Positions 23,901 to 61,990 of a stretch of 64,000 bases of DNA are shown one piece after another; the first letter of the stretch is position 1, and each line of letters starts with the position of its first letter. This DNA comes from Octopus vulgaris. Its lineage: Eukaryota. Position numbers and translations under genes: made by a program. The notes below the pieces were generated by a model. The model did not search any database. It was given only the letters and a program-made list of their open reading frames with translations, and was not told where the DNA came from. The stretch lies in NCBI GenBank assembly GCA_951406725.2, contig OX597816.1, forward strand, positions 372,001-436,000, written 5' to 3'.

Positions 23901-26900
23901 GATGCCTAGGTCACGCTCGCAAGAGGATTTCTTGATATCAGTGTTGTGGAGGGAGTATGTGAACGCAGGGTTTTTTCTCCCAAAATGCATGGTGGTACAC
24001 TTGTCCACAGCCAGTTTCAGTTGCCAGTCCGTGATCCATTGCTGCATTGTGTCTAGGTCTGATTGCAGGAAAGAGTTGTAGACATCAGGATCTGTCCTCT
24101 TGATTTCAAGGTACAGCTTGATGTCGTCTGCATATTTCAATACTGTGGCATTCTTTAAATTGGCATCTATGTCGTTAATGTATGCCACAAACAAGAGGGG
24201 GCCAAGGACAGATCCCTGTGGTACACCCGATGACATCTCATATGGTGTAGAGTGCTGTCCTAGAACTGTGACTACCTCCTTTCGGCTGAGGATGAAGGAT
24301 TTCAACCAGTTAAAAAGTTATGGTAGACGGAAACTGAAAGAAGCTCCTTATATACATATGTGTGTGTGTGTGTATGTGCGTGTGTGTGTGTATGTGTGTG
24401 TGTGTGTGTGTGTTATTGTCTTTACGTCCTGTGATGGTTGTAAATGAATGTTACCATCATAGAAGCAATATTCTATGAAAACATGTCAGGCCAGGAGGAA
24501 CCCATGCAAGAAAGGAAACGTGAGCATTAAATGATGATGATGATGATGATGATGATGATTAGTAAGTAAATAAACTCTCCTTACCTTACAGGTACAATTG
24601 TTGCACTCAGAGTTGATCCAGGATGTTTTATCAGGTCTATGTCGATTGTGTTCATCTTTACAACCTTGAAAAATACACCAAAACAGATTGCTATAAGAGT
24701 CCACTCCACTCATATCCATGTGGCCACCACCAATGAGAAAACCACAATAAGGTTGTTTACTCTGCAAAAGTAGTAGCCTAAGTCCCCCAAACACACCCAG
24801 TCATCTAAAAGAAAAATTCACATTGGTTGATAAAATCCCTCACATTTGGAAAGACAGTACAAACATCCGCCAGAGATATCTTTCAGCATTGGTCTACTGA
24901 ATTACGGCAAACTGAGGACTAAACAACATTGGACATACAAAAGTAGGCTTGACAGGAAGGAAGCTGGAACAGACCCAAACTGCCACCCTACATCCAATCA
25001 TTTGTATCTATAAAGTGAATTCATCCAATTTGTTCACTTATTAAGTTATTCATCAAGTGATAATTGTAAATGAGAGTCACTGTTATATAAGCAGAGACAT
25101 TTTTTTCAATCTTTGGTGGGAAAATGTCTAATGATGGGCAAATGTTAGGGTTAGTGACAAGAAGGACATCTGACCCTAGAAAAATCTACTTCAAATTGTA
25201 CCTGACCCATGCAAGCATAAAAAGGTGAACAGCAAAAGGATGATGATGGTGGTAGTGATGATGATAATGATGAGGCTGTTGATGGTGGTAGTGATGATAA
25301 TGAAGAACATTGTTTGGTTGTTTCTGCAAGCAGTACAATGTTTAAATATCTATTTACCCATTCATAAGACTCCTCACTGTTGCACTATGTCCTCATCCAA
25401 AATTTATATAAATCTACAGTCATAAATCATATGTTTTACAATTTCTAAAATGTTCAATTCTATTTCCCTCAACACTGCTCTTTATAATAACTATTATTGT
25501 TATTCATTTACATCAGCAGCCATAGTGCTTTGCCATTTTATGGTGCACCCTCCCATCCCAGCAGTCTTTATCCTCTGACCTCTACTGGATATCTTTGTCT
25601 AGAGTACCTCCAATGGCTTACTATACGGAATGCTTCCCCCATCCTTACCCAACGTCTATCTCCTATGGAATGTAGTGATTATGTAGCGCATAAAATGATA
25701 GTGTATGCAGGTTGAAGGCTATTGTATGTTTACGAGGTCTGCCAAATGTGAGCTTTCTTTTCAGATGCATGATGCTGCTGTCTCCCATCCCAGGGTGTCA
25801 CTGGCCCACGTCTTCCACACCCACCAAGTTGGCACACTGAAAAGTAGGTCTAGTGAGAGTGTTGAAATGCTTGAACGGAGACATGTAGATTTGTGTTGCA
25901 TCCAAGAAGTAAGGTGGAGAGGAAGTTCTGCTTGGCTCCTCACAAGCAAAGAACATAGGTATAAGATTTTCTGGGTAGGGAACAGGTAGGGAACACTGAT
26001 GGGGTTGTGGACGTCGGTATACTTCTTGTGGAGAAATGGGTTGATAAGGTAATCAAAGTAGTCAGAGTGACAGAATACTTAAGCTTCGACTAGTACTGCA
26101 ACATGGATTAACAGCCATTATCTCAGCTTCTGCCCCTCAGCCAGGGCTACCTGATGAACAGAAAGACAGATTTTACAACACTCCTTTGCAGACCCCCTCA
26201 TTGACAAATGACAGGGATCTTTGTGGCTGACGACTTCAATAGGCATATTGGACAACATCCAGGGAGCTTCCATGGTGTACTGGAGGCTACAGATTTGGTT
26301 CCCACAGTGAGGAGGGAACCAAGCTGCTGGAGTTCTGTGATGCAAATGATGATCTGTAATTACGAACTTCAGGAAACCTGCCAGTCACCTGTCTGGTGAG
26401 GACACTAGTCAGATTGACTACATTATTACCAGGAACAGAGAAAAATGGCTACTTATAAATGCCAAAATCTTCTCAGGTGAAGAATGCACCCCACAACATA
26501 GGTTAGCAGTCAGCAATTTCAGGATCAGGGCTAAATGGATGCCCAGAAGATGACCAGCATGGAAAAGAAGGGCCTAGAAGCTTAAGGACAGAGATTTAGA
26601 GACGTATTACTTGAAGCTTTTGACAACAAACAGGAGGATGTAGCATCACATAATGTGGAAGACAACTAGAAGTTCCTACAGGACAACCTGTTGCGGGCTA
26701 CTGACGAGATCTGTGGATGGTGCAAAGCCCCCTCTCGACTTAAGGTAACGTGATGGTGGAACAATGTAGTTGACAAGGCCATTAGGGAAAAGAAACATGC
26801 ATGGAAGGACTGGAAGTGCAGTAGTATCCGATCACCAGAAGGGAAGCTACGAGACAGGTTTACTTAGCTAGAGGGAAAGCAGAAGAAAAAAATTTGCCAA

Positions 26901-29900
26901 TGTTCTGCAATGTGAGGGCCAAAGTGTTTCATATTACAAGACAGTATGTAAGAGAGAATCATGATGTCACAGGAGAGAAATGTGCTCACATGGAAGATGG
27001 CTCACTTTGCAGTGATGCTGCAAAGAGAGAGACTTGGAGATGCCACTATGAAAGGTTGCTAAATGAAGAGAATGCATGAGAGAAAGAGAGTCTGCCAAAT
27101 GTCGACTCAACAGAAGGACCAGCTATTCGATTTGACAGTACCTTGGTAGATAAAGCAATTCATGGTATGAAGAGAGGGAAAGCCTCTCGCCCATCAAGAA
27201 TCACTGCAGAGATGCTTAAAATGTCTGGTGGTGTAGGCTGTAGTCTAGTCACCCACATAGTCAACCAGGAGATACATGAAAGAGTCATACCTAATGATTG
27301 ATGTAGCAGCACCATAGTCAACTGTTAAAAAGGTAAAGGTGATGCAATCAACAGGAATAATTACAAAGGAATCAAATTGTTGAATCAGGTGATGAAAGTC
27401 AAGGAGAGGGTCATAGCCCAACTAATTAGGGTGAGAGTTAGTTTAGATGAGATGCAGTTTCGTTTTGTAACAGGGAGAAGCACCACTAATTTCTGGTAAG
27501 ACAGCTGCAGGAGAAATTCCTAGCCAAAGATAAACCTCTGTACTTGGCTTTCATTGACATGGGGAAAGCCTTTGACAGGGTTACCTGATGCTTTATCTGG
27601 TGATCAATGTAGAAGGGTTAGTGAGAGCTGTACAAGCCATGTACAGGGATGCTGTCAGTAAGGCGAGGGTTGAGAATGAGTATAGTGAAGAATTCCAGGT
27701 AGAAATAGGAGTCTACCAAGGTTTAGTCCTTAGCCCCCTCTTATGTGCAGAAAACAGATTCCATCACATGTCAGGAGGAAAAATTAGAAGTAGTTGATAG
27801 CATCAGTTACCTAGGTGACCAAATCAGTAGCCAGGGTGGATTCTCTGAGAGTGTAGCTGCTAGAATAAAACAGCCTGGGTAAAGTTCAGAGAGCTCCTAC
27901 CTCTGCTGGTGACAAAGGGTCTCTTGCTCAGAGTAAGAGGTAGATTGTATGATGCATGTGTATGAACAGTCATGCTACATGGCAGTGAAACATGATCTGT
28001 GACTGCTGAGGACATGCGTAAGCTTGAAAGAAATGAAGCTAGTATGTTCTACTGGATGTGTAATGCCAGTGTGCATACACAACACAGTGTAAGTGCCCTG
28101 AGAGAAAAGCTGGACATAATAGGTATCAGATGTGGTGTGCAAGAGAGATGACTGCGCTGGTATGGTCGTGTGTTGCGAATGGATGAGGACAGCTGTGTGA
28201 AGAAGTATCACACCCTAACAGTGGAGGGAACCTGCGGAAGAGGTAGACATAGGAAGATCTGGGATGAGGTAGTAAAGCATGACCTTCAAACGTTGGGCCT
28301 CACAGAGGCAACAAGTGACCGAGACCTTTGGAGATATGCTATGCTTGAGAAGACCTGGCCAAGTGAGGTCATAGCCATGGCCTATGCCAGTGCCACATAA
28401 CTGGCTCATTTAAGAGTACCCTTCAATCATCAGACTATATGCTGTGCTTGAGAAGACCTGTTGAGTCAAGTGAAATCATTGTCATGGCCGATGCCAGTGC
28501 CACCTGACTGACACTCATGCTGGTGGCACGTAAAAAGCACCATTCAAGTACGGTCAATGCCAGTGCCACCTAACTGGCTCCTGTGTCGGTGGCATGTAAA
28601 AAGCACCATTTGAACGTGGTTGATGTCAGTGCTGCAGTACTGACTCCTATGCTGGTGGCACGTGAAAAACACCATATGAATGTGGTCGGTGCCAGTGCCG
28701 CCTGACTGGCTCCCATTCTGGTGGCACGTAGAAAGCACCCACTACACTCTTAGAGTGGTTGGCATTGGGAAGGGCATCAAGCTGTAGAAGCCTTGTCAGA
28801 TCAGATTGGAGCCTGGTGCAGTCCACTGGCTTGCCAAACTGTCCAACCCATGCTAGCATGGAAAGCAGACATTAAACAATGATGATGATGATTTTAAAAA
28901 AAACATTTTTTCACAGTTTCATCTAGCTAAAGCCATTATTTGAAAGTACCTTGGCATTCTACAACATCACCAGAGTGAGCATCATACCATTCAACAGAAC
29001 AGGTCCCACAATAGTTCACTCGGCAGATGGCACCAGATATACCTAGAAACAAGAAACAAATTTAAATGTTTTAGAAAAAAAAAAGCATTATCTGTATTAA
29101 AGAGATTATATTAGTACAAACATGGCAGAGTAGTTGAGAAGTTTGCTTTGCAAGCAGATGGTATCAGTTCTGTTCTAATGCATGACACCTTGGGCAAAAT
29201 ATCTTCTGCTATAGAGCTAGGTAAACCAAAACCTTGTGAGAAGAAACTGAAAGAAGCCTATCATGTATACATGTGTGCGTGTGTGTGTGTGTTTTCTTGA
29301 CGTCACATGATGTTTATGAATAAGCATGACCGTCATATAAGTGATGTTGCTTACTTCCAGTCTTCCAGGAAAATCATGTCTTGCCATGGGGAAATATTAC
29401 TTTGATTGCAAACAGATCAGGGTTGGGGCAAACAAGTACATCTGACAGTAAAAAATCTGCCTCAACAAATTTAGTCTGACCCATGCAAGCATAGAAAAGT
29501 AGACATTAAAACAATCATGATGATTTCTAGACGGCAAAACATATTTATTAATACAAATTTAATCCAAACGTGTGTGCACATGTCAATGTGTGTTTAATTA
29601 GTGAAATGTGTCTGTTCAAGTTGTATACATGACTGTATACAAGAATACAAACCCACTCTCAACCGTAAGTCTGAATGGGGTAACACCCAGATTCCACTGG
29701 GGAGTACCCCTCTATAACCACCCCTTTGTCTCATTTGCATGTAGAAATCCATACATACATGTTGAGATGTATAATATTGATATATATATATAAAGCACCC
29801 ACTACACTCGCGGAGTGGTTGGCGTTAGGAAGGGCATCCAGCCGTAGAAACACTGCCAGATCAGACTGGGCCTGATGCAGCCTTCTGGCTTCACAGACCC

Positions 29901-30000: not shown

Positions 30001-33000
30001 TATATATAACTTCAAGAAAGTTAGGGGTTGTGAGTCCAACCCACTAAGGGATAATATCTATCCAATATACTGTTGATAGAATACCCAATTATTAATACAC
30101 AAGTATTTTTTATTGCAATGCAATAACATTACCTAGTGTATTAAATGGGTGAAAGTAAAGAAATATTTTACCATTAATTTATATTGCAAATAAGAAAATG
30201 GAGGAGAACAATAGTTGGTTCATCAACTTTAGAAAGTTGATGAACCAACTATTGTTCTTTCCATTTTCTTATTTGCAATATATATATATAATGTGTGTGT
30301 GTGTGTGTGTGTAATTACATTTAATTGTATGAGTGTACATAGATTAATACGTATGTACGTATATGTATATATGTATGTATGCACATATAGAAATAAGAAT
30401 AAAATTTTTAAAAAGTAAAGAAAAAGAAAGCAAAAACAAGAAAAAAAAGCGAATTTGGGATCTTTTCACTCTGACCGACAGATTTTGAAAATAATTTCTT
30501 TGTAACTAAAAAATTTTAAACTTTGTATACTGGTAGAATGTGTTTATAAAACATCTTTTTCTCTTGGCTTTCTTGAGAAAATTCTGTAGTTTGTAACATA
30601 TTTGTTGTTTAATTTCTTGCATTTCGGCAATTTCAACCAATCAATGACGTCTATTGAGGTGAAAACAATTTCTGCCGTAACATTTAATGGGTGCGTCATA
30701 TGAAAATGTCCCTGTTTTTTATGAGACAAAAGATACCCTGTGGCCATAAACTGAGGGGTCACTTGTAATGCAATAGATCGATACTAGGGTCATAATTATG
30801 GGTGAACACTAAAGAGGGAATGGTTTTGTTATCCAGCTCTGTTTATATATATATATATATATATATGTATACATATATATATATATACACATATACACAC
30901 ACCATATCATGTGTGAGAGCTGAACATCTGACCTCAAATCTTTTGATAATTCACAACAATAATGACCCCTCCAAAATACTCCCCTTCTTTATTCTTAAGG
31001 GATTTAACTCTACTTTCTCCTCTTCTCAAATACCATTAGTCTTATCGTTATTCTTATCTTTATTTCATTTACTTGTTTCCCCCACTTCTTCTCCACCTTC
31101 TATACACATGCCTTTGTATTTTTTATATATTTTTCCTCTTTTTGTGTATATACTCCTAACAAAAAAATTTTTTGGCTATTTAAGCAACCAGTAGAACATA
31201 TATTTTTCAGTTTGAAAACAGCTACTTGAAAGCTTGAAATTCATGTCTGAGTAACTCACTGTAAACATTATGAAGATTAAAAGAAAAATTATCCAGAGCA
31301 AAATTTCTACTCATTTTTTTTCCAATATATAAAGATATATAAGCATGGAACATGGACATTAAATGATGAGGATATACGTAGTAATGCCTTATTGAAAACA
31401 CATGAGTATAACCAAGATGAAGCTATATGAAAATGAGAGATTGAAATGTTATAAAGAATGGAATTTTGTTTAAAAAAAATATAATATATTGAATTAAAAA
31501 TAATATAAAAAATAAATGAATCTTACCAGGACAAATTGTATCAAAGCACAAATCTGATGAACATTTGACAGGAGCATGACCCAGGGGACATTTTGAAAAG
31601 AAGTTCGTTTCCAAACAAAACCTGTAAAATGCAGAATAAATATCACAGATATTGATCCTTAAGGATCTATATTGACAAATAGCAGAAACAATTTGAAGCA
31701 TAAATATCACAGATATTGATCCTTAAGGATCTATATTGATAAATAGCTGAAACAATTTCAAGCATAAATATCACAGATATTGATCCTTAAGGATCAATAT
31801 TGATAGATAGCTGAAACAATTTGAAGCATAAATATCACAGATATTGATCCTTAAGGATCTATATTGACAAATAGCAGAAACAATTTGAAGCATAAATATC
31901 ACAGATATTGATCCTTAAGGATCTATATTGATAAATAGCTGAAACAATTTGAAGCATAAATATCACAGATATTGATCCTTAAGGATCTATATTGATAAAT
32001 AGCTGAAACAATTTGAAGCATAAATATCACAGATATTGACCCTTAAGGATGGTGTTTTATATGCCACCGACACAGGTGCCAGACGAGGCTGGCAGACGGC
32101 CACGCTCGGTGATAAATAGCTGAAACAATTTGAAGCATAAATATCACAGATATTGACCTTAAGGATCTATATTGATAAATAGCTGAAACAATTTGAAGCA
32201 TAAATATCACAGATATCACATAATGATATTGATTGACCTTAAGGATCAATATTGATAAATAGCTGAAACAATTTGAAGCATAAATATCACAGATATTGAC
32301 CTTAAGGATGGTTATTGACCACCACACAGGTGCCAGATAAATACGCTGATAAATGCTGAAACAATTTGAAGCATAAATATCACAGATATTGATCCTTAAG
32401 GACCTATATTGATAAATAGCTGAAACAATTTGAAGCATAAATATCACAGATATTGACCCTTAAGGATCAATATTGATAAATAGCTGAAACAATTTGAAGC
32501 ATAAATATCACAGATATTGACCCTTAAGGACCTATATTGATAAATAGCTGAAACAATTTGAAGCATAAATATCACAGATATTGATCCTTAAGGACATATT
32601 GATAAATAGCTGAAACAATTTGAAGCATAAATATCACAGATATTGATCCTTAAGGACTATATTGATAAATAGCTGAAAAATTTGAAATAATACACATATT
32701 GATAGTATTGATAAATAGCTGAAACAATTTGAAGCATAAATATCACAGATATTGATCCTTAAGGATCTATATTGATAAATAGCTGAAACAATTTGAAGCA
32801 TAAATATCACAGATATTGATCCTTAAGGATCTATATTGATAAATAGCTGAAACAATTTGAAGCATAAATATCACAGATATTGATCCTTAAGGATCAATAT
32901 TGATAAATAGCTGAAACAATTTGAAGCATAAATATCACAGATATTGACCCTTAAGGATCTATATTGATAAATAGCTGAAACAATTTGAAGCATAAATATC

Positions 33001-36000
33001 ACAGATATTGATCCTTAAGGATCAATATTGATAAATAGCTGAAACAATTTGAAGCATAAATATCACAGATATTGATCCTTAAGGATCAATATTGATAAAT
33101 AGCTGAAACAATTTGAAGCATAAATATCACAGATATTGACCCTTAAGGATCAATATTGATAAATAGCTGAAACAATTTGAAGCATAAATATCACAGATAT
33201 TGACCCTTAAGGATCAATATTGATAAATAGCTGAAACAATTTGAAGCATAAATATCACAGATATTGACCCTTAAGGATCAATATTGATAAATAGCTGAAA
33301 CAATTTGAAGCATAAATATCACAGATATTGACCCTTAAGGATCTAATATTGATAAATAGCTGAAACAATTTGAAGCATAAATATCACAGATATTGACCCT
33401 TAAGGATCAATATTGATAAATAGCTGAAACAATTTGAAGCATAAATATCACAGATATTGATCCTTAAGGATCAATATTGATAAATAGCTGAAACAATTTG
33501 AAGCATAAATATCACAGATATTGATCCTTAAGGATCAATATTGATAAATAGCTGAAACAATTTGAAGCATAAATATCACAGATATTGACCCTTAAGGATC
33601 AATATTGATAAATAGCTGAAACAATTTGAAGCATAAATATCACAGATATTGACCCTTAAGGATCAATATTGATAAATAGCTGAAACAATTTGAAGCATAA
33701 ATATCACAGATATTGACCCTTAAGGATCAATATTGATAAATAGCTGAAACAATTTGAAGCATAAATATCACAGATATTGACCCTTAAGGATCAATATTGA
33801 TAAATAGCTGAAACAATTTGAAGCATAAATATCACAGATATTGACCCTTAAGGATCTATATTGATAAATAGCTGAAACAATTTGAAGCATAAATATCACA
33901 GATATTGACCCTTAAGGATCTATATTGATAAATAGCTGAAACAATTTGAAGCATAAATATCACAGATATTGACCCTTAAGGATCTACATTGATAAATAGC
34001 TGAAACAATTTGAAGCATAAATATCACAGATATTGATCCTTAAGGATCAATATTGATAAATAGCTGAAACAATTTGAAGCATAAATATCACAGATATTGA
34101 TCCTTAAAAATCTATATTGATAAATAGCTGAAACAATTTGAAGCATGAATATCACAGATATTGACCCTTAAGGATCAATATTGATAAATAGCTGAAACAA
34201 TTTGAAGCATAAATATCACAGATATTGACCCTTAAGGATCAATATTGATAAATAGCTGAAACAATTTGAAGCATAAATATCACAGATATTGATCCTTAAG
34301 GATCAATATTGATAAATAGCTGAAACAATTTGAAGCATAAATATCACAGATATTGATCCTTAAGGATCTAATATTGATAAATAGCTGAAACAATTTGAAG
34401 CATAAATATCACAGATATTGACCCTTAAGGATCAATATTGATAAATAGCTGAAACAATTTGAAGCATAAATATCACAGATATTGACCCTTAAGGATCAAT
34501 ATTGATAAATAGCTGAAACAATTTGAAGCATAAATATCACAGATACTGATCCTTAAGGATCAATATTGATAAATAGCTGAAACAATTTGAAGCATAAATA
34601 TCACAGATATTGACCCTTAAGGATCAATATTGATAAATAGCTGAAACAATTTGAAGCATAAATATCACAGATATTGACCCTTAAGGATCTATATTGATAA
34701 ATAGCTGAAACAATTTGAAGCATAAATATCACAGATATTGACCCTTAAGGATCAATATTGATAAATAGCTGAAACAATTTGAAGCATAAATATCACAGAT
34801 ATTGACCCTTAAGGATCAATATTGATAAATAGCTGAAACAATTTGAAGCATAAATATCACAGATATTGATCCTTAAGGATCAATATTGATAAATAGCTGA
34901 AACAATTTGAAGCATAAATATCACAGATATTGATCCTTAAGGATCAATATTGATAAATAGCTGAAACAATTTGAAGCATAAATATCACAGATATTGACCC
35001 TTAAGGATCAATATTGATAAATAGCTGAAACAATTTGAAGCATAAATATCACAGATATTGACCCTTAAGGATCAATATTGATAAATAGCTGAAACAATTT
35101 GAAGCATAAATATCACAGATATTGACCCTTAAGGATCAATATTGATAAATAGCTGAAACAATTTGAAGCATAAATATCACAGATATTGATCCTTAAGGAT
35201 CAATATTGATAAATAGCTGAAACAATTTGAAGCATAAATATCACAGATATTGACCCTTAAGGATCAATATTGATAAATAGCTGAAACAATTTGAAGCATA
35301 AATATCACAGATATTGATCCTTAAGGATCAATATTGATAAATAGCTGAAACAATTTGAAGCATAAATATCAGATATTGATCCTTAAGGATCAATATTGAT
35401 AAATAGCTGAAACAATTTGAAGCATAAATATCACAGATATTGACCCTTAAGGATCAATATTGATAAATAGCTGAAACAATTTGAAGCATAAATATCACAG
35501 ATATTGATCCTTAAGGACCTATATTGATAAATAGCTGAAACAATTTGAAGCATAAATATCACAGAGAGTGATCCTTAAGGATCAATATTGATAAATAACT
35601 GAAACAATTTGAAGCATAAATATCAGATATTTATCCTTAAGGATCAATATTGATAAATAGCTGAAACAATTTGAAGCATAAATATCACAGATATTGACCC
35701 TTAAGGATCAATATTGATAAATAGCTGAAACAATTTGAAGCATAAATATCACAGATATTGATCCTTAAGGACCTATATTGATAAATAGCTGAAACAATTT
35801 GAAGCATAAATATCACAGATATTGACCCTTAAGGATCAATATTGATAAATAGCTGAAACAATTTGAAGCATAAATATCACAGATATTGACCCTTAAGGAT
35901 CTATACTGATAAATAGCTGAAACAATTTGAAGCATAAATATCAGATATTGATCCTTAAGGACCTATACTGATAAATAGCTGAAAGAATTTGAAGCATAAA

Positions 36001-39000
36001 TATCACAGATACTGACCCTTAAGGATCTCTATTGATAAATAGCTGAAACAATTTGAAGTATGAATATCACAGATATTGACCCTTAAGGATCAATATTGAT
36101 AAATAGCTGAAACAATTTGAAGCATAAATATCACAGATATTGATCCTTAAGGATCAATATTGATAAATAGCTGAAACAATTTGAAGCATAAATATCACAG
36201 ATATTGATCCTTAAGGATCAATATTGATAAATAGCTGAAACAATTTGAAGCATAAATATCACAGATATTGATCCTTAAGGATCAATATTGATAAATAGCT
36301 GAAACAATTTGAAGCATAAATATCACAGATATTGACCCTTAAGGATCAATATTGACAAATAGCTGAAACAATTTGAAGCATAAACAGTGTTGAATTTTTA
36401 GCAAAACGAATTGAAATGAGTGTGAGTAATTTAAGGCTAAAACTCACTAATTTCCAGCCAAATATTCTTTTCTACTCTAAGCACAAGGCTTGAAATTTTT
36501 GGGGAAGGAGCCAGTTGATTAGATTGACCCCAATATGCAGCTGGTATTTAATTTATCGAACCCACGAAAGGATGAAAGGCAAAGTCGACCTGGGCAGAAT
36601 TTGAACTCAGAACGTAAAGACAGACGAAATACTGCTAAGCATTTTGCCTGGCATGCTAAAGATTCTGCCAGCTTGCCGCCTTATTTCCAGCCAAATATTT
36701 GATGCCAAAACTAGTATTCACCAAACATATATTTTACTTTAAATATTCCAACTAAATCAATATGACTGAATTTTGATTTATGTTCATTAACTTGTTTTGC
36801 ATGATTCCTGATGTGAAACCGTGTATTGAAACAGATATTGTTATATTTTGGAATGGTCATTCATTTTTCTTGCCAAGTATACAGTTGCATTAGACATTCA
36901 TTCATTCTTCCTTCTTTTATAATTGTTCTTATTTTACTTGATGTCCATTGTCTAGAAATCTTTTGTCCCACACCTGTGAGCTCTTCAGTGATTCTTCCAT
37001 CCCACGTCCCCTCCTGCTCTGTTTAGTCTATTCTGTCTTTCTATGGTGTGTATCCTTATCTAAACATGCATTTGCATGTGTGTATGCGTGTCTGTGCATG
37101 CGTATATGGATGTGCTCACTATATTGTTTGTATCCGTGCCCTTTATATAGTTTTTTTTTCGTTTATTTACTTATCTCTCTTTATAATTTATTCTTATTCC
37201 ATCTTAATTTTACGCATGTGTGTCTTGTGTGTGTGTGTATGAGTTTTATGTATGTATGTCTTGTGTGTGTGTATGAGTTTTATGTATGTGTGTCTTGTGT
37301 GTGTGTATGAGTTTTATGTATGTGTGTCTTGTGTGTGTGTGTATGAGTTTTATGTATTGTACTGTTTCTATGTCATTTTTCCCCCCTTCTGTCTTTAGTT
37401 GTCAGTGTTCCATAGTGCAGTGGTAGTGTTATTGTCCCATTCATGTTTCCTGCTGAGGCTTGATCTGTCTATTACTATGTGTGTAGCCTCTGTAATCTAA
37501 ATGTCATGTCTGTTCTATGTGTTGATAATACCTTAACCTCTACGTTATTAACCAAGCCTTTATATTTTACTTGAGTATGTTCGTTGAGCACTGACGAACT
37601 TTTCTCCTCTTTGAGCTCCTCCTGCCAGTATTTGCCAGTCTGCTCCCCCATGCTGCATGCCATCTCCCCAAAGTAAGTTGTCATCTTGTTTCCATACCAT
37701 TCCTTAATACATCTTAAGCTATAGACTACATTCCTAATCTTACAGTTAACCTGTGGGTTCATCTTGCATTCCATACAGCTGTTCTCTGTACATGGGGATC
37801 CATGTACCACACAAAACACACATAAAAAACACATAGACATGTGCACACACACACACACACACACAGATACAAACATATTTAGATAAGGATACACACCATA
37901 GAAAGACAGAATGAACTAAACAGAAAATGAGGAGACATGTGGGAGAAGAGTCGCTGAAGAGGTTACAGGTGTGTGATGAAAGATTTCCAGAGAATGGACA
38001 TCAGGTAAAATAAGAACAATAATAAAAGAGCGTAAAACAAATAGTGTGTGTGTGTGTGCGTTTATTTGGCAAGAAAAATCATAAAAATGAAAAAATGACA
38101 GTGCCAAAATATAAGAATATAAACTTTTATTGTTCCTTGTCAATTTCATAAAGTATTTTCATTAAATTTGTTCAAAAGCAGTTATGATGAAAGAAAAATG
38201 AAGAAATTATTGTTTGTAAATGAAGAAAGTTTAACTAATTACACTTTTTAATTTATTTTAGAAATTTACATGATGGTGGTCATGGGAGGAAGCATAAGTT
38301 ATCAACAATTTTGTGAAGGGATCAATGATATATTAAGTTTGTTGATCCTTGGTTTAAACAGTTAATTTAATTTAATTTTTCTTTCATACATACATTTTTT
38401 CTTTCAGTATTTTTATGCAAATTCTCTTAGGTTGCAGGAATTTAGTTAATCTACAAATCTTTGTGGATTTGTTGAGAGTAAAATCTTTTGCAGTTTTTTT
38501 TCTTTAATGCTAATCAGTTGATCCTGTCATGGCTTTGTTTATTGTTTCCAAAAGAACAGATTAGTGGAGATTATGTGTTTAGTCCTTTTATAACCATTTT
38601 TCACATAAAATACACTCACTGACTTTGTTTTAATTAATTTTGAAAATAATGAAGAATTTATTAAAATAACTTTGCCATTATTTAACTGGTGTAAGGCAGC
38701 GAGCTGACAGAAACATTAGCATGCTGGGCGAAATGCTTAGCGGCATTTCCTCTGTCTTTACGTTCTGAGTTCAAATTCCGCCAAGGTCAACTTTGCCTTT
38801 CATCTTTTCTGGGTTTATAAATTTAGTATCAGTTGAATACTGGGGTTAATCTAATCGACTGGCCCCTCCCACAAAATTTTGGGCCTTGTGCCTAGAGCAG
38901 AAAAGATTATTTAACTGGTGTTTGGAACATAAATTAACATTTCAGAAATTTCAGTGGAAGGGCTTTTTTTTTATTTATTTAGATTACTTTAAAAGAGGAC

Positions 39001-40176: not shown

Positions 40177-41292
40177 ATTATTATTATTATTATTAAAGTG
40201 ACAAGTTGGCAAAATTGTTAATGTAATGGACAGCAATTCTTCGAGATCTTTACATTCTAAGTTCAAATTCCATCATGGATGAAGTGCTACTATGAGAGAT
40301 TATTACATGTGAAGAGTGAATGGCAGAAAGGCAGTTTCCTCAGTGTGAACCCAACAGAGGGACCAGCTATTTGTGTTGACAGCAGTAAGGCAATTAAGGG
40401 ACAGGGAAAGCCCCTAGCCCATCTTTTCAGGGAATCAAGTACTGGATTTGACTTGCTCCTGACCCCTAAAATTGTTGGCCTTGTGCCAAAATTTGAAGCC
40501 ATTGATGCATTCATCACCCTTAGTGATATCACTTCTCTTATCCACTAACTTTAAATGCCTTTATACAAGCCATCAATATGTCTAATCAAGATGTTGTGGA
40601 AGAGAAGTGTGTACAGGCATGGAAGTGCTACTATGAGGGATTATTACATGTGGAGAGTGAATGGGAGAACGGCAGTTTCCTCAGTGTGAACCCAACAGAG
40701 GGACCAGCTATTTGTGTTGACAGCAGTAAAGCAATTAAGGGACAGGGAAAGCCCCTAGCCCATCGGTGACAGAGTACTAGTGTGGTGAGAGAAAATTATG
40801 GCATAGGAGGAATTAGTGTGGTTTGGTCAGGTGATGCATATGGATGTAGACAGTTGCATACAGAAGTGCCGATCACTTAAAGTTGGAGAGAACTTGTGGA
40901 AGAAAGAAACCCAGAAAGACATGGGACGAAGTATTGAAGGCCAATCTCAAGACACTGAGCCTTACGAAGGAGTTGACAAAGGACCAAGATACCTGGCACC
41001 TAGCTGTACTCAAGAAGACCTGTCCACCGTAGCAGAATTGATAATGGTGCTGGTGCCACAATTAAAATCAGAGAAATAAAAATTGTTAAACAAATACAAA
41101 TTAACACAATTATCAGTCTCAACCAAGGTTCAAATTTTCAGCACAAAAATTTACTTTTGAATTGCATTGTGAATTGAATAATCCTCTTCAATTAAAGAAA
41201 TTTGACTTGAAGAACTTGTGTGCACACATTTTTAACCCTCTGTCCACTAGTCGTAAAAGCTGTAAAATGTGTGCAAAACACAAACATGTGCA

Positions 41293-41342: not shown

Positions 41343-44300
41343 GCCAGGAATTGGTCAGAATAGAATAAATGAATTTTTTTTAGAAAATCAATAAATCAAA
41401 ATTGTTATTGTTTACCTCGGATCAGGAACAGGAGGAACCCAAATTTTGTCAAAGACATCATCAAATGAATAAGGATTTTTCAGTCTGTCCAGAGCCATTA
41501 TTGCCAAAACTTCTGGAATGTTTTTTTGCCGGTTCAACCAATAAACTTTATACATCCACTGAGGAAGCTGTGACACTGCAGGACACAACCTTGGAATATT
41601 TATCAAAGAATGCATGGATTTTATCTCGCTAAGTTTATTTTTAAGTGACTGGTATATGATTATATAAAACGGGCCATTGAAATAGTAATTGCAACCAAAG
41701 CGATTGAATCCATCCTTGTCAAAACCAAAAATGTCAAACCCTTTGTTATTAAAACCCAAGTTATTTAATCCAAGTTCATTGAACTCATTCTTTCTGAATG
41801 TAGAGACATGTTCACTGAAGACATTCGTTTTGATTCTACTGAAACCATATCTGTTATGACCAGATCTGTCATAGCCAGCAACATCAAAGCCGTCAGAATT
41901 GTAACCATCTTTGAAAAAAAGATCTTTGTCGTAGCCCATACTATCAAAACCTTGTCGAGAAAAGCCTTCTTTGTCAAATCCCTCATTATTATATATTCCT
42001 CTGAGATCAATATAGCCATCAATGTTTATTCCATGTACATCAAATCCATCTTTATCATAACCATTTTTATCAAAGCCATGACGATCATAACTATCACTAT
42101 CATATCCATAGGTCTTTATTTTGGTCTGGTTACATGGTGATCCAAATGGTAAATTCAGATAGGTTATACAGATTTGTTTTTTGCAATCTAATACATCATC
42201 AGGAGTAACTTTGAAAGGTTCCATAGGAACATATCGAAAATTAGGAGGAAATCGCAGCAAACCTTTTTTATGACTCCTCTGCCAATCATCCCAGAGTTTA
42301 TCAATAAAAGCTACATGTGAATAGAAAAGGGGGTCGTAAGCACTGAGAGGTGAGTCCATGTGGCCTCCAACCCACATCTGGAAAAGATGCAGCATTGATT
42401 CCATGTAAGCTGAGAAATCACTAAAGGTACTTTCCTGTAAAGCCAAGTAAACATGAATTGCGTCTGGAAGATGTACTGAAGAATTGAAGTGTCTACGGAG
42501 ACAAGGTGTCCAATATGGTGGATGATAAGACTTAAACGGATGATATCTGACACAGTCTGTTCCATTTTCACCATTACCACCAAAAAATTTTGATGACCAA
42601 ATAACCGATTTATTCAAGACACCAATATCAAGGGTCCAATCATAATATGGGATCACAACACCACATTCAACATCTTGCATCAACTTTTCAACCATAAACA
42701 AAAAGTAGCGATGCCATGGCAAAAATAAAGGATTTCCGGAAGCTTGAGGAATATATTCTGAATACATTTCAGCAAATTCAAACCACACAGATTTACCATT
42801 TCTTTTTTCATGCTGTAGATTCTGGATGACAAGTTGGTAACGCTTTATTTCATCAAAACTCATGTCACGAATCTCTTTGCGTTGTAAATGTTTTTGACAA
42901 GAATTCATTTCTGAAAACCCTCCCAAGTGACACTGAAATTTCTCACAGCCTACATTGAAATCGTCCCAAATCCTATGGAACTGATTATTAAACCAACACA
43001 TACAATTTGGCTTGCAACTGACATCTTCACATTTTTTTCCTGGAGAAAAACGAACAATTTGAACATCATCTTCGGTTTCCAAATGTTGACACCTTTTCCT
43101 TGTGGTTCTCATGCAAGTATACTTGAAGCCAGCATGACGTCCATAAATATCCAAACCATCTCGGTTAACACCTTCACAATTGAACCCTGCCCTGTAAAAA
43201 GAAACAGAAATAAATTTCCTTAATCTGTTTGAATCAATTTTATTTTACATCACAACATTCCATCACATATACACTGGTTTAGAATGGATTTAGAGTAATG
43301 GTATCTTAGTTCTGTTAAAGTTAACTTAGCTTTTCCTGCCAATTAATATAATTTTGAATAGCAAGGCATTCTAATGGCCTGCCAGTAACGAGACTCAAAA
43401 TTAAATAATTGGCATTTATAAGGTTACCAACAGGCCACCAAAATAGCCGGCAGGTAACAATACATTTTGTCTGAACTCTATTCTTTTTCTTTTTTTTATA
43501 TTTTTTGAAAGGGGAATCTTTCTCAAAATATTATAGGATCACTAAATAACTAACATATGGTAATACATCATCTTTCTCTATATTTTCATTTATTGGCATC
43601 ACCTTACCTATTTTTCATCAATTAGATATTATTACCTCAAAATTGTTATACAAATCAGTGATGCAGGTGAGAAATTAGGCAAAATAAGAATGATATTCTG
43701 TGATTTTTATGTAATCATTTGCCTCATCATTTCTTTTCATTAAAATGCAATTTTATCTTGAGTTAAAACCCCAAAAGATTACAAATAATTTGTTTTGAGG
43801 CCCCGTGTCGGTGGCACGTAAAAGCACCATCCGTTCGTGTCCGTTGCCAGCATCGCCTGGCCCCGTGCTGGTGACACGTAAAAGCACCATCCGTTCGTGG
43901 CCATTCGCCAGCTCTGTCTGGCACCTGTGCAGGTGGCACGTAAAAAACACCCACTACACTCGCGGAGTGGTTGGCGTTAGGAAGGGCATCCAGCCGTAGA
44001 AACACTGCCAGATCTGACTGGGCCTGACGAAGCCTTCCAGCTTCACAGACCCCAGTTGACCCGTCCAACCCATGCTAGCATGGAAAGCGGACGCTAAATG
44101 ATGATGATGATGAATAAATGACAACCAATGGAAAAATGCAAAGAAACTGAAAACCTGGTGATTCTTGTCAACTTAAAATTATGAATTAACTGGACTAGGA
44201 AACAAAAAAAAAAGAATAGTTTAACTTACTTTACACTAATCTGTACATTGTGTCTATGTACATGCAAGTATGTGTCCCCAGGCTTCTTAATTCTTCATTA

Positions 44301-47300
44301 CCTCACTTTCCTTAGCTATGAAGAACAATTATCAGGAATTATATTTATTCTGGAAATGTTATTAGTGATAAAGTTGCATCTTATCCACAAGTTTGATCCT
44401 TCATCTACTTACCCAAGAATACCGCTTCCATTATTCATGGTCCTCTGAGAACTACCATTTATATATTTAAACATCAAATGGGAAATTTGCTGATGTGTGC
44501 AAAACTTTGACAAGCTGAGACTAACTTACTAGAGGAGCACTAAGCAGTGTTGATTCAAATACAGGTGTGTACAATTATATTTAACGCATTTGTGTTTCAA
44601 GAGAGAAATTCTCCTCCACAGACAAAGTGTGTGAGAACCACATCAATGACATCATTAGACTGTAAGCTGCATGTTTCAGCATTGTTGTGCTTCATCAGCA
44701 GAGACACTGAATCCACTGTTCACAGCCCATTAAGAACTACAATTCTTAAACAGTAAATGTTACATTTGCTGATGCATGCAAATCCTTGTCAAGCTAGAAT
44801 TAACTAATTAGAAGCACATTAGGCAGTGTTCACTGAAATATAGAGAATCTCTCACCTGAGAGATTTCTGCACTGAGAATCACCAGATTTCAATGTACTTA
44901 GGCCTATTAACTACACATATATCTTAATCGTCATTGCTTAGTGAGCTTTCCTATAATAGACATTTAGAGTTTTGATTTTTGCTATTAATTATTTTAATGC
45001 ACTGAATTGGATAATAGGGAATCACCACCGACAATACCATCATCTTTACATCCACTTTTTCCATGCCTGCATCAGTTAGAAGAGACTTACTGAGCCAGTA
45101 TTCTAATGGCTGAATGCCTCTCTTGCCGGCGGCCCTTATTTATTATTTTTTTTAAGGTATATTTTATTCTGCTGATCTTCAAACACCATAACAACTCAAG
45201 CCAGAGGGTGTGCTGTTTATGTAGCAGTGCTGTGAAACATCACCACTGCCCCAGCTGTGTCAACAGGGAGACAAACATTTACACACACACACACAATGGA
45301 TTCCCATCCCAATGCATTGGGTAACTGAAGCTGAAGACGCTGGTCCAGAGTGCCACAGAGTGGTATTGAACCTGAAGTCGTGTGGCTGTGAAACAAACTT
45401 CTTAATCACAAAATCCAGGCTTTTGCCATATTACACATTCATATTCCTAACTAAACCAACCTTTATCCTGTTGTGCATGGCTTAAGGGACAGGGTTAGGG
45501 TATTCAGGTCACAATCGTAAGGTCATGAGTTCGATACCTGGTAATGTGTTGTAGCCTTGAGCAAGACACTCTATTTCACTTTGCTCCAGTTCACTCAGCT
45601 GGTGAACATGAGTAGTACGTACATTTCAAACGGCCAGCCTTATCACATTTTGGGCGTCACCAAATCTTCCTGAAATCTACATTAAGGGGACACATGTCTT
45701 TGGAGTACTCAGCCATTTACATGTTAATTTCATGAGCAAGCAGTTTGGTTGATTGGATCAACTGCAACTCTGCAACCAACAGAGTGCCAGGTTTTTCCTT
45801 ACTTTAGTAGAATGTTCTGAACCAAAATGACAGTGACACCTGCCCCCCTCCTCTCTTTCTCTCCTTTCCTCACCCAACAAAGTGCAACTACTAAAAATAT
45901 TAGATTCTTCACTCCTCATAGCAACAGAACTCACCAAATTCTCGAATGAACCTTCCTATACACCTACTTTTGATAGGAAACACTGTCACTACCTCCTTCA
46001 GAGACAGGATTTCATTTATTGCCTTGTTTGTGGTTTGTACATGAGCTTCTGCGTGTGTGTGAGGGAGAGGGAGAGTTTGTACCTTGTCTTGACGTCTTGT
46101 GATAGTCGTAAATGAGCATCACTGTCGTAGAAGCAGTGTTGTTTGTTTTCGGTCTTCTGTGAAAAACCTGATGGCTATGGGGGAAATAAATTTGCTTAGA
46201 AATAGGTGAGGGTTGACAACAGAAGGGGCACCTGGTCACAGAATATGTGCCTCAACAAATTCCATCCAACCCATACAAGTATGGAAAAACAGACATTAAA
46301 ACAATGATGATGAAAAAGAATCAATAAATAGTAATAAGAAATCTCACCTGTTGTAACCTTCTTCATCGTAGCCATCATCATCATAGTCGATCATGCCATC
46401 AAACTCACCTTCTCTGCTATATCCCGTCATGTTGAATCCGAACGGATCGTAACCTTCAGAATTGTAGCCTAATCTATCATAACCAACAGAGTTGAATCCA
46501 TTTTTGTCATAACCTGCAATAGAGAAACCATTAGTGTTCACAGATCAGAAAGAAACAAAATTACTTTATGATAAAAACTAAAACTGTAAAAAAGTTAGTC
46601 AAAAGGAAACAAAAGACCAGTTTCCTGGTTTCTCTGATGTAAATATATTTTTCTCTGGATGCCAGTCCGTCGCAGGACCAGCATCCCATCCAGAGATGCA
46701 TTTTTACCAGCTGAGTGGACTGGAGCCACATGAAGTGCTTTGCTCAAGAACACAATGCATCAGCCAGTCCAGGAATTGAAACCACAATCTTACGATCACA
46801 AGTCCAACACCCTAACCACTAGGCTATGCATGTCCACCAAAACTGTATAAGATTAACAGAAACTATAGTGGATTAACCCTTTTGATACCAAACTGCCTGA
46901 AACCACCTCTGGCTCTGTAGTACAAATGTCTTGTTTTCAAAAGTTCTGAATTAAATTCCTCCACCAAACCTTAGTCACAATTTATGTTCCTAACACTAGC
47001 TTAATGATAACTAAGTTATTTTACTAAATTCTTTGTTATATTTAGAATTAATTGAAAGAAGCACACAGCATCTCAACAGAAATATGGTAACAAAAGGGTT
47101 TACAGAAGCTATGTTAAACTGATTGTCTTTTAATCCTTGCAGAGATATACATCCTGGAGACAAACTCTCCAACAGTCACCATATTTTCAATGTCTTGCTT
47201 CTCTGAGCATTGACACACTAAACTTTCAATATGTAGATAAATGACTTGGTAGAATCCCACAAGAAGATTATCCGTTACCTTTCCAACAATAATTTTGGTC

Positions 47301-47833
47301 CTCTTTTTTAAATCCATTATCTCTGCTCATAAAATCAAAGAACAGCGCCTCACCCATAACTTTCAGAAAGATTTTGTTCATACTCAGAATTGTTAAAGCA
47401 TGGAATAAACTACCAACATTTGTTATTAGCCATTAGGACATGGAACCCTTCAAAAATTCTAGGCTCCCCAACATTACTCCTGATGTGTCTAGACATTCTT
47501 TTCTCTTTAGGACTCATTTAATGTTCCCTTTTTATTATTTTATTCTGTCTACTATACATGTAATTTTGGCTATCGTTGTTGTCTTTCTTTGTTCAATTAT
47601 TGCTGCTTTCTGTCCCTCTTTTACCTGAGTATCATGCACCTGAGTATCATCATCATTTACTATCCATATTCCAGGCTGGCATGGATTGGATGGTTCAGCA
47701 GTATCTGACATGCCAGAGGACTGCGCTCCAATGTCTGCTTTTGCAAAACTTCTACAGCTGGATGCCCAAGCTCATCATTATTTTTATGATTATCATCATT
47801 ATAGCAACAAGTATGAATAATCAGGGTCTCTGA

Positions 47834-47865
<32 letters not shown>

Positions 47866-50743
47866 TAATAATAACAATAAAAAAAATTATCTTACGCTTT
47901 GAAAAATCTTTACACAGGCAAGAAATAGGAAATTTTTTTTTAAATATATTTATCCACCATCATTTATTAATAAGATAAATGAAACATGAAGCCTACTCAT
48001 TTACAAAAGAATCACAACCAAATATAGAATTCACTGCTTTTATGATGAGACTCATTTACAAGACACCACACCATCAAGCCTACACAATACATGCAAGAGA
48101 ATAACTTGTTAGATTTGTGTATAAAATGGGAAATGCCTCACCATGCCAATCATAGCCATTCTTCTTGAATCTGTTGATTCCCATCTTCATCCCAGTTTTC
48201 GCATTGAATATTTTCCTTAACTGGTTGTAACCTTTTGCATTAAACCCATATCTGAAAGTTAAAATTTTGGAAAATTATTTATTTTAATTATTTCCATTTC
48301 TTTGGAGTAGGTGTTGGTTCAAATTTTTAGGGGAATTTATATATTTGAATTGGATCATTGTATCACTAGTATTTATTATATTGGCCCTGCAGAGGATGGT
48401 GAATGAAAGGAGCATCTATGTTCAACAAGTTGCAGAGAGTCCACTATTGTAGTCTCCTCCAGCTCTACCACACCAGCAAACAGATTATCAGAATTATAGA
48501 TTCATAGACAAGAGTAAGATTGTATGATTCTTCTGACTTTCTCATCTGATCCATTAATCATTCTCATATACTTTTCCAGGTCACATGGAATTCATTGAGG
48601 TAGATTTTCTACAGCTGGATGCCCTTCCTGTTACCAACCCTCACCTATTAGCAAGCAAGATAATATTTCTCTATGGCATGGAATACTGATAATGAAGAAC
48701 ATTGCTTACATAACAGTGGCACTCATTTACAACTATTGCATGATGTCAATACAACACACACACACACACACAACAGTCAGTTTCCATCTACCAAATCCAC
48801 TTACGAGGCTTTGGTTAGCCCAAGGCTATAGAAGAAATTTTCCCAGGGTGTTACACAGTGAGACTGAACTTGAAACCACGTGATTGGGAAGCAATCTTTT
48901 TAACCCCAAAGCCATACCAGCTATTTGTTTGGTGCAGACTACAGGTTCAATTCTTTTTTTGTGGACTGACTTAGATAAGTTGTCAAAAAATTCAAACCAA
49001 GTAAAACAATCCATTCTGATGAGCAGCTAAAATATCAATTAGCTTAAGTAATTGTCAGTTAATAAATAATAGAAAATCCATAGAAACATCAGTACTTCAA
49101 GCAAGAGTTAGAGACCCAGAACACAATAATAGAATCATTAGTGTCTTGTAGCAGAAACAGAAGAAAATTTAGCCTAAAGTCAATAATTTGTGCCATATAT
49201 AAACTTGAAACTGAGACACCAACCAACTGTGGAGTCTTAAATCTGTGCATCTGTAATTTCAGGTTTACATGGGTAGGGGGAAATTTACCAGCTCATCAGT
49301 TTTCTTATCAACTGACTAGCAGTATCGCCCGGCGTTGCTCGGGTTTGTAAGGGAAATAACTATATAAGCATTTTTAGAGAGTTATAGCCAAAAAATAGCA
49401 AAAAATGCATTAAAAATGGAAAAAGTATGATGGTAAATTTTTTGAAAAATCGTTGACTCATCGTAGACATTTTTAGAGAGTTACTTCCCTTATATAATAG
49501 CGAAAAAATGCATTAAAATGGAAAAAAAACGATGGTAAATTTTTTTTTAAATCGTAGACTCATGTAGACGCTTTCTTAGCCATTTCTGTTTTGGTGTCTT
49601 CAAGCCATGAAGTCGTTATTCTAAAAGAACACTGGTCTCCTTGACAACGCATTACGACGTTGATTTCCTTACACTCCCTTCCCCAAAGGTGCAGGTGTGA
49701 GCGTGGACGCCAACTCCGCCGCCATCAACACACGAAAAATTATGCATTAAAATGGAATAAAAAATGATGTTAAATTATTTTTAAAATCGTAGACTCATCG
49801 TAGACGCGCTAATACTCAGACGGGCTCGATATGAATCACGACTATAAGCTACCCGAATTTGGTTAAACTGCACCGCAAAATGTGGGAGTAGTTAGGAATC
49901 TAAATCGAAGGGGACAGACACTCACACAACTACAGTTTTATATATATAGATATACATAGCGCAGTAGTGGTGAGATGTGACAGCAAAGAAAAGCATACAT
50001 TCACTCTCTGCATGCAATTAGACTCGGAAAGTTCGTGAGGAACCCATTGACCCAATTTGCTGACTTTTCCGATAGCACACAGGTCTCAATGAATGGTTGA
50101 ATGACCAAATCCAAGCTTCTCTGCTAGTTCCTCAACAGTTACGATGAGATTTTGTTCCACCAGGGTTTTCAGGATGTCCTTGTCGAGTTCTACAGATCTT
50201 TCAGGATGAGGCTCGTCTTCTAGGCTGTTCCAATATAGCTTTGAAAAAAATAGCTGTTAAAATCGAAATGCACTCTTCAAAACTTGCACTATGAATAAGG
50301 ACAAGATAAAATTACTAACTGCTTTTATAGCAAGTTAATATAAGTAGTTTATCCCATTCCCCTCTGACTTTTAGTTCAAGCTGTTGAAAAAACCGCATTA
50401 TTATATATATATACATACATACATACATACATACATATACACACACTCTCTCTCTCACACACATGCACACATTTATATTCTGTTATTCTTTTATATGTTT
50501 CAGCCTTGAGGTTGTGGCCATGCTGGATCATGTGTGTGTGTGTGTGTGTGTCTATCTGTCTGTCTGTATGTATATATGTATATGTATGTGTGTGAACAAT
50601 AATATTTTCAACAGATGTGTTGCAAATGTATCTGATTGTTCTCAAGCTTCAATACTGTGTGTGTGTGTATGTGTGTGTGTGTGTGTATGTATGTATATGT
50701 ATGTATGTATGTATGTATATGTATGTATGTGTGTGTGTATGTA

Positions 50744-50794: not shown

Positions 50795-53700
50795 ATGTAT
50801 GTATGTATGTATGTATGTATGTATGTATGTATGTATGAGTGTTCCTCAAATCACTATCTCTGGCTATTTACTCTCTTCCAAGAACATTTTCACTCACACT
50901 TATGTGTTAGCTTCCCATACATTTTACTCATGTATCTATCAGCGTGATAGAGAGAAACAAATATTACATCTAGTTTCACTTTATTCGTTGCCCACTGTGT
51001 GTGTGCGTTTGCGTGTGGTGTAAACCAGACTAAGAAAAGCATTTGACACACACACCAGAATGTGAGTTTTCTGTAAATTTTGCTTAATTGGAGTTGAAAT
51101 TTTAAAAACTGGACCTGGCATGACGCGATGCATTGTACTCTTAAAATTGCTAGGTAAATTGTAATTGAAGAAATCCTATATTGTAGATTTGTATAACTCC
51201 CAAAGGGAGGCAGATAAAATCTGCCTTTTATAATAAGAGATATTCACACAAATGAAACTATTGCTGTCATCAACATCACTTTACATTTGTTTTTCCATGC
51301 TAGCATGGGTTGGATGAATCACCATAATCCGAGTGATATCCCATTAAACGCTATCATTCCCAAAGACTAAGTGCTCAAGTGTGTTATCTGATTTGCTTTC
51401 TGCAACTTGATGCCCTCTCTAACATCAATGGTTTCACAACATGTACTGGAAGCATTTTCCCATAACACTAATACAAGAGAGGCTGAATAACCCTTAGTGA
51501 TAGAGCGAAAGTAAATCTTAAGGCTTAAAAGGATAATACAACAAACAATTAGAAAAATTAATCTTACTTATCATAGCCATCAGGACCAAAGCCAATGGTA
51601 ACTGCTGGATTAAGTTGCTGCCGGTAACAACAAGCACCAACAACACATTTTTTCTGGCAATCTGTAAGTGTCTCAAATAAATTAGCATTGCCCCCACAAC
51701 CAGAATAATCAAACTGGACACATTTTGATCGATGGAAGTCAAAGTACCAACGACTCACATTCCTTGAACAGGAACCTGTAAAAGATAGAATGATGTTGGG
51801 TTTTTACATCTATGTCTTTATAAATTGATAAATAAGTGTATAAAAAAATTATAGATAGCAAAAGGAAATATTTAAAATCCTTATCACAATATGTATTGAT
51901 GGAGTTCTCTATGACTCACATTCCATAATGTCTTGTGTACCCCAGGGTTCAGTTTTGAACCCCACATTCATCAGAGACCCACTCACCGTCACCTTCAAGC
52001 ACTTATACATAAATTATATCACCCTTCATTCTGCTCTAAGTCTCCAACAACCAAAAATTATCCCCATGCAGCCTAGTCACCTCTCCACACCAAACCTATA
52101 ATGATTCCATGAATAGAAACCTCGCAAACATTCTTCAATGAGATTTTATCAATTTTGTCTTCTTCAAAAGCACAAAAGAAATCAAAACATTAAAATCAAG
52201 AAAACATTACTGCAGCCCATTCCAGTCTTAAAACATGAGCAGCATGCAGCTAGAACCCTGAATGTCACTACAACTGATTGGATTCACTATCTTGGTGAAG
52301 GTATATCCTCAACATAACAAAAACTGATGCAGCCAAAGACTGGCATTCCTCCACTTCACAGTTGGAAAATAATTCCCAACAACACTGAGCCATTGTTGCT
52401 GCCATATGCACAAACAAAAAACAAAACTGCATTCAAAGGAAAGGTCAGAAGAGTAGGTGTGAAAGAACACCACATCCTGCAAGCTCAGGCAAATACGATT
52501 ATTATAGCCAACTGTATACCATTCTTAACTTATATACATCACTGAAAGGCATCCTAATCATGATCATCATCAACATATAATGTCCAGTCCATGCCAGTAT
52601 GGGCTGGATAGCTGGACAGGAGCTGGCAAAGTCAGGGGTTGCACCAGGTTTCATGATCCGATTTGGCATAGTTTCTACAGCCCTTCCTAATGCCAACTAT
52701 TTTACAGATTATGTTTAGCTCCTTGTGGGCAATAAAGAAATAAGATTGTACTTGGTACTTTTTACATGACACTATCACCTGTGCTTTTTATGTGGCACCA
52801 TCATCATCCTCATCATTATCGTTTAACATCCGTTTTCCATGCTAGTGTAGCAATATTGCTATCTTCACTGTTTGAGAAAAACATTAGGAATGATCTCGTT
52901 TGAGATTACAAACATCTTTGGCTAGTTTAACCTTGTTGTGTCCACTGATCTGATTGGTTAGCATCTAAGCGCAGTCTGTTTCTCTACTTATTTCGCACCA
53001 GTGTGTAAACTGACCAATCACGGCTTTCAGATAGGATCTTTCAATTGAGCCATCTTCACTCCATAAATAGGCTAGTATTTCCACGATTCACCGTCTTTCG
53101 ACTCAAGACCTTCTAAGGTCTGGTTGGAGACCTCACAGAGCTTACTCAACCATGTTCCAGTTCAAAAGACAGACGTCAGCCAAGCCAACTATACTATAAA
53201 GACGCTATTGTATAGCAGCAACAGACAGAACGTCATCACCAACGTCATCTCCATCTCCGGAGATTCAACTTGTACACAAGATAAATACCCAGATTCATCT
53301 CACGCTGTTTGTGTGAAACTATGACCATGGAAAAACAGTTGCAGAATATATACTTGAAAGAACATCTATATCAAGAGAAACCTGCTCAACAAGAGACTCA
53401 ACTAATCTCCTCTTCGAGACCCAAATCTTGTTATAGAACTTATTATCGTGTACTACATGAACTGATAAAATAACTCTATCTTAACTCAATATGTTGAGAC
53501 TTCTTTTATGCTCTGTATTTCTGGTGTATTCGCATGCACCTTTATCTGTACCTCCTGTCGCACGCACAAACACACAGACACAAATATTATACGCATGCAT
53601 TCATACCACAACACTACGCTAGTAATCACAACTCACTTTGTACACTGTGAATAAAATCTATCTTCTCTTTATAAAAGTAGAACGGTTTTGGCGTCCTTTA

Positions 53701-61920: not shown

Positions 61921-61990
<70 letters not shown>

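Follow-up and report, generated by a model that had tools for sequence, protein, structure and literature searches.

A domain of the tyrosinase family encoded in the genome of Octopus vulgaris has lost five of its six copper-ligand histidines while keeping a fold that is predicted to be intact, and it is real, ancient and apparently so far undescribed as a pseudoenzyme. The domain, referred to here as T2, lies on the minus strand of the window, by which we mean the whole stretch of 64,000 nucleotides analysed (contig OX597816.1, positions 372,001 to 436,000), and is the second tyrosinase-fold domain of a Kielin/chordin-like (KCP) protein. Type-3 copper proteins require six histidines, and given that requirement T2 would almost certainly have neither a binuclear copper site nor oxidase activity. 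Judged from the sequences, the decay of the histidines extends across Bilateria and is seen in the two paralogues T1 and T2. A first-pass annotation of the same DNA had recognised the dead tyrosinase fold, which stands, and had missed the identity of the gene as Kielin/KCP, the bilaterian extent of the decay in the two paralogues and the variability of the residues that replace the histidines.

The gene and its cassettes

The minus-strand open reading frame at 41412-43244 carries T2, the actual exon within it being 43191-41416 (1776 bp, phase 2-2, AG/GT ends), which encodes residues 1362-1953 of the 3875-aa O. vulgaris protein P0209. Translation of 43193-41415 is identical to residues 1362-1954 of that protein at 593 of 593 positions, and 21 exons with AG/GT ends running from 61316 to 1417 reproduce its residues 923-2598 exactly. 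In P0209 Pfam matches the tyrosinase family PF00264 in two stretches and VWC in 24, besides a VWD domain. The protein has the long VWC array followed by VWD by which KCP is recognised, the VWD lying outside the window. Records are called KCP, with one source using 'chordin', and the cluster of P0209 carries the name kielin/chordin-like in two other Octopus species. Identity to Xenopus tropicalis KCP is 35% over 2024 columns, and the KCPs of shark, newt and coelacanth carry the cassette that contains T2 at a common junction. We assign the gene to Kielin/chordin-like (KCP); its orthology to vertebrate KCP as against chordin or BMPER is putative, on the basis of this identity and of the common cassette junction. 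The N-terminal end of P0209 contains a signal-like stretch, secretion and BMP/TGF-beta binding of octopus KCP being putative; this stretch begins at Met 63 and the start of the record (aa 1-62) may be placed too far upstream.

Octopus KCP contains two such cassettes of ~740-870 aa, placed after VWC1. Only the last three exons of cassette 1 fall within the window (61316-61128, 60138-59896 and 56395-56150; 56150-61316 overall, minus strand), T1 itself (aa 610-884) being encoded upstream. Cassette 2 is complete (28950-54940, minus strand; aa 1148-2016, 869 aa, 7 exons, with a phase-1 intron at each end) and consists in order of EGF-like, Kunitz-like, GxD repeats, a small beta module, T2, further GxD repeats and a Cys-rich end. 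Exon mapping places the EGF-like exon with the start of the Kunitz-like domain at 54782-54940, the Kunitz-like exon at 51568-51775 (supported also by its Cys pattern), two GxD-repeat exons at 48142-48251 and 46348-46513 (supported also by spliced contigs) and the two exons of the Cys-rich end at 31527-31621 and 28950-29042, all on the minus strand. The EGF and Kunitz assignments derive from the Cys pattern in octopus and Pfam matches in orthologues, both domains being absent from the Pfam listing for whole P0209.

The T2 exon comprises a Cys loop, a short VWC/FnI-like beta module (42891-43004) that precedes the tyrosinase domain, the pseudo-tyrosinase itself, a run of Gly-(Phe/Tyr)-(Asp/Asn)-x-x pentapeptide (GxD) repeats (41637-42074; 17 units, 13 of 16 spacings equal to 5) that is predicted to be ordered, and a helical segment (41493-41666) predicted, as a hint only, at the place of the haemocyanin/PPO shielding domain. 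Long GFDxx pentapeptide runs are also found without a tyrosinase domain in P0220, P0221 and P0222 (~2000-2350 aa), two of which have a weak 'Decapeptide' Pfam match. Downstream of cassette 2 the chordin-type VWC array occupies eleven exons (1417-24664, minus strand, aa 2017-2598) and the gene continues past window base 1. Contigs from four runs of four studies, whose samples we could only guess to be RNA, skip the intron at 46511-48140 at its canonical ends in 4/4 runs and that at 43190-46347 in 3/4.

An AT-rich 64-bp minisatellite (31636-36384, 74 copies, 4.7 kb) sits 15 bp from the exon at 31621 within the intron after the T2 exon, and reverse-transcriptase-like (LINE) fragments, judged by eye from translations, occur in introns at 3-434, 942-1397, 11277-12260, 15223-15756, 23322-24317, 40261-41079 and 56882-57949. 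Another repeat, interspersed in high copy and built of internal units of 60-66 bp, is present at 43799-44113, 46700-47100, 28485-28739 and 61653-63942, and contig cover is very deep at 43941-44176 and 46773-47244.

Loss of the copper ligands and its age

The PF00264 match (42276-42791, minus strand; E 3.3e-24, 86.9 bits against a curated cut-off of 22.6) forms the core of a 273-aa domain at 42096-42914, and both a structure model and fold searches place it in the four-helix tyrosinase fold. To set the ligand register, T2 was aligned with 108 domains that carry six His, some of them haemocyanin units. In CuA the His1 position is occupied by Tyr (42762-42764) and His2 by Ser (42738-42740), with His3 (42711-42713) the sole ligand kept; in CuB Leu (42390-42392), Gln (42378-42380) and Val (42312-42314) stand at His4, His5 and His6. 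Neither the CuA triad H-(n)-H-x8-H (here Y, S, H) nor the CuB triad H-x3-H-(n)-H (here L, Q, V) is present and the identity of an active type-3 copper protein was rejected. Passages of PMC3658974 describe a Phe four residues before the third His of each site and an Asp four residues after that of CuB; these landmarks fall at the expected places in T2 (F64/H68 and F197/V201/D205 in the numbering of the 273-aa domain) and the register is therefore secure. The His adjoining V201 corresponds to the non-ligand 'seventh His' position described in a passage of PMC11803259. The first-pass annotation had pointed to one His offset by one at CuB, and this residue, one off His4, is present yet is His in just 4% of 45 T2 orthologues; it is therefore no conserved rescue ligand. 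Its claim that about five of the six ligands are replaced was borne out exactly by the alignment and landmarks, every motif that it quoted was found in the translated frame, and the comparison it had proposed with PF00264 and haemocyanin units returned the strong Pfam match with one of six ligand histidines at the site. The ligand string YSHLQV is identical in 14/14 Octopus protein records listed and in Argonauta, which rules out chance or sequence error as the source of the loss.

The scaffold around these positions is well conserved. The predicted model of T2 is intact and aligns with haemocyanin 8tnv over 227 residues for the domain alone and 276 with the helical segment. Identity in the T2 core exceeded that in the VWC array in 5/5 comparisons, the VWC values being lowered by differences in repeat number. 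Between octopus and either sharks or newt, identity stands at ~49%. Three histidines outside the ligand positions are also kept (H125 in 96%, H185 in 89% and H200 in 76%). The spliced contigs, the model and this conservation fit the first-pass reading of a dead fold retained for a structural or binding role. The substitutions themselves, whose conservation in orthologues had been suggested as a check, did not prove conserved, with a modal residue at the five replaced sites of only 33-67% across the 45 orthologues, and structure is therefore favoured over a re-purposed pocket.

The loss is not confined to octopus. Of 45 T2 and 24 T1 domains, 69 in all, not one retains all three His of either CuA or CuB, and His is never found at His4, while 9/45 T2 domains and the amphioxus T1 have no ligand His at all. 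Left out of this count were the query, two rows nearly identical to others, four T1-like domains with 2-4 His and without a full triad (three unnamed, one of Owenia) and the unplaced fragment P0073, which has an intact CuB triad. Taken with the six-His requirement, the figure supports the earlier suggestion of a catalytically dead domain whose use is structural or in binding. In a careful tree of 62 selected rows from which the ligand columns had been removed, T1 (100/99) and T2 (99/99) are sister clades (96/90) and seven choanoflagellate-type domains, five of them from named choanoflagellates, form one clade (100/100) in which 5/7 keep six His. A sister position of this clade to T1 plus T2 received an SH-aLRT of 91 in a quick tree and was not resolved in the careful one. 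Compared with the whole octopus cassette, 5/6 choanoflagellate sequences align over ~820-850 residues and the sixth over 530 (E 1e-69 to 1e-108).

Two of the choanoflagellate domains, P0054 and P0059, have 4 and 3 His respectively, with Tyr at His2 as in Lingula and Ptychodera T2. Outside the family, the short tyrosinase-like proteins P0103, P0143, P0124, P0132, P0109 and P0082 retain 0-3 His, which suggests other independent losses, and P0080 (3109 aa) combines multicopper-oxidase and subtilase domains with two tyrosinase domains that have 5 and 6 His.

Searching with the shark cassette gave 39 matches among 1044 candidates, 35 of them with both PF00264 and VWC, from molluscs, a brachiopod, chelicerates, a crustacean, tunicates and amphioxus as well as hagfish, cartilaginous fish, sturgeon, teleosts, coelacanth and the newt Pleurodeles. 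The newt N-terminus, in a search with mammals and birds outside its coverage, matched 63 of 2005 candidates, with the domain in 10 and absent from 53, among which is every row from frogs, caecilians, lungfish and reptiles. In 40 of these 53 a stretch of at least 800 residues is skipped, its start no more than 25 residues from one junction (13 fail this rule), and long and short Latimeria models differ by 895 aa at the same junction. The domain was not found in 14 further frog records, and a passage of PMC10315795 describes mouse Kcp as made up of 18 cysteine-rich repeats and a VWD domain. These protein models suggest that frogs and amniotes may have lost the cassette from the genome. In several fish the cassette is annotated as a separate record (32 matches among 332 candidates). 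Amphioxus and crinoid records (P0047/P0219, P0051) hold T1 only, as against vertebrate and horseshoe-crab (P0037) records with T2 only; either each side has lost the cassette that the other kept, or the models are incomplete.

Candidate roles of the copper-less domain

T2 likely acts as a metal-free structural core rather than as an oxidase. The domain is predicted to retain the four-helix tyrosinase fold, with the GxD repeats and flanking modules packing with it as one rigid unit, and on balance we favour a role for this unit as a rigid anchor or spacer that would tie the BMP-binding VWC array into the extracellular matrix. KCP enhances BMP signalling and suppresses TGF-beta signalling, according to passages of PMC6750614, while Kielin-like proteins are reported to make up the leading class by abundance in the matrix of the Argonaut eggcase (bioRxiv 2021.07.10.451900) and to occur in the sea-star skeleton (PMC5460417). 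The 'kielin' contigs of such matrix proteomes are described with VWC domains alone and might derive from other genes of the VWC type.

The main competing idea is that the emptied pocket binds a catechol, a phenol or a Tyr/DOPA peptide but does not turn it over, working instead as a sensor or as a trap for substrate, the peptide perhaps being the protein's own Tyr/Phe-rich GxD repeats. CuA His3 (36/45 T2 domains), the 'waterkeeper' Glu (33/45) and mostly the pocket Phe are retained, and Tyr makes up 7.5-11% of the GxD repeats vs 2.3% of the VWC array; however the former ligands lining the pocket vary widely, with 10 residue types each at His2 and His6, and the helical segment is predicted to lie where a shielding domain would, so that we regard such binding as unlikely. 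A single metal held by a new residue set in a Lewis-acid or structural role has a precedent in the haemocyanin-like zinc enzyme AsqI (passages of PMC6053404), and could draw on the conserved H125, H185 and H200 of T2 or on T1, where Tyr stands at His1 in 24/24 domains and three His remain in 14/24, making T1 on sequence grounds a more plausible candidate than T2 for a one-metal site. AsqI however keeps a whole tri-His site, which none of the 69 domains does, and with one ligand left in octopus T2 and none in the ligand-free T2 and amphioxus T1 domains this is a quite unlikely explanation.

A third possibility is that the cassette forms a product of its own, nested in the gene or ended alternatively, which gene models fuse to KCP and which has no role alongside the BMP-binding array. 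This would fit the several fish that have a short cassette-only record and a cassette-less KCP record (in the Centroberyx and Diretmus pairs the longest contigs are equal in length) and the paired Latimeria models. It is very unlikely given the fused architecture of the 35/39 shark-cassette matches and the T2-array join, with the same six ligand-site residues, in all 14 other Octopus records listed. Single contigs in two studies also extend 6013 and 5960 letters beyond the 3' end of the T2 exon, against 5.77 kb of coding sequence remaining, a link to the VWC array inferred from matching length and not from letter alignment. A decaying relic under relaxed selection is harder still to credit: the cassette is dispensable in many vertebrate models and four of the six differences between sequencing runs in the T2 exon are non-synonymous (two synonymous; no purifying signal, in numbers too few to weigh), but octopus shares with sharks or newt the identity given above, the 1776-bp exon is open and T2 is among the best-conserved regions of the protein.

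Under the favoured structural reading, a six-His cassette of the type still found in choanoflagellates would have been inserted after VWC1 of KCP and then duplicated into T1 and T2, the binuclear site being lost before the protostome-deuterostome split; the cassette would be optional, as short KCP forms omit it in frame. More tentatively, the ancestral bilaterian Kielin may have been a two-part protein of which the frog and mammal forms are truncated versions, with a copper-enzyme cassette from single-celled animal relatives that became a pseudoenzyme, was duplicated and has been kept for >500 million years as a spliceable switch, holding the BMP regulator in the matrix or linking it to a catechol or metal cue. 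If true, fish and newts would make cassette-plus and cassette-minus KCP of different BMP range. As an enhancer of BMP and suppressor of TGF-beta signalling, KCP has been studied in its frog and mouse forms, which lack the cassette; if the longer form is ancestral and common, studies of how BMP gradients form in invertebrates, sharks, fish and newts overlook a 100-kDa module. Within the PF00264 branch, T2 is in addition a candidate for a pseudoenzyme of great age, and since six-His relatives exist in choanoflagellates the change from enzyme to scaffold is directly testable.

Relation to known systems

The kielin-tyrosinase architecture is visible in database annotation. It is mentioned once, as very long outliers, in PMC11667028, the main text of which lacks the words 'histidine' and 'inactive' and the supplement of which lists the KCPs of Octopus and Lingula as tyrosinases; such proteins should be set apart in surveys. 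'Kielin' and 'chordin' are likewise absent from PMC3658974. The PPO 'type d' of PMC11803259, reported from O. vulgaris, Mytilus and a few chordates and mainly zoopagomycete, may include these KCP domains, the top Atlas match being a Zoopagomycota-rich cluster; passages of that paper treat PPO histidines as conserved and are silent on their loss, and no row naming P0209 was found in the supplement files covered. Nothing on the loss of His, on the cassette or on its choanoflagellate relatives was found in the open literature covered, to which the original Kielin and KCP papers do not belong.

The arthropod branch offers known examples of type-3 proteins that lack copper (PMC6034248); there, hexamerins and cryptocyanin/pseudo-haemocyanin (PF00372) likewise have a type-3 fold without copper or O2 (passages of PMC6034248 and PMC6850205); T2 lacks the arthropod haemocyanin domain set and that identity was rejected. 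The AsqI cyclopenase also has a type-3 fold with a broken binuclear site, and an AsqI-type mononuclear enzyme was rejected as T2 has no intact tri-His site. The relatives of T2 are the tyrosinases, catechol oxidases and molluscan haemocyanin units of PF00264 (Streptomyces 1wx2, Priestia 3nm8), from which it differs in keeping one of six His and in its setting within a VWC/VWD protein. Choanoflagellate Kunitz-GxD-tyrosinase proteins, such as Salpingoeca rosetta PTSG_11343 and PTSG_12389 ('mantle protein 9') and those of S. urceolata and Hartaetosiga, are collinear with the octopus cassette; they are uncharacterised and differ in mostly keeping six His and in having no VWC array or VWD that we could find. 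Kielin/KCP of Xenopus and mouse resembles the octopus protein in its VWC array plus VWD, whereas the characterised forms are described in passages of PMC6750614 and PMC10315795 as having VWC and VWD domains only, to which octopus adds two cassettes.
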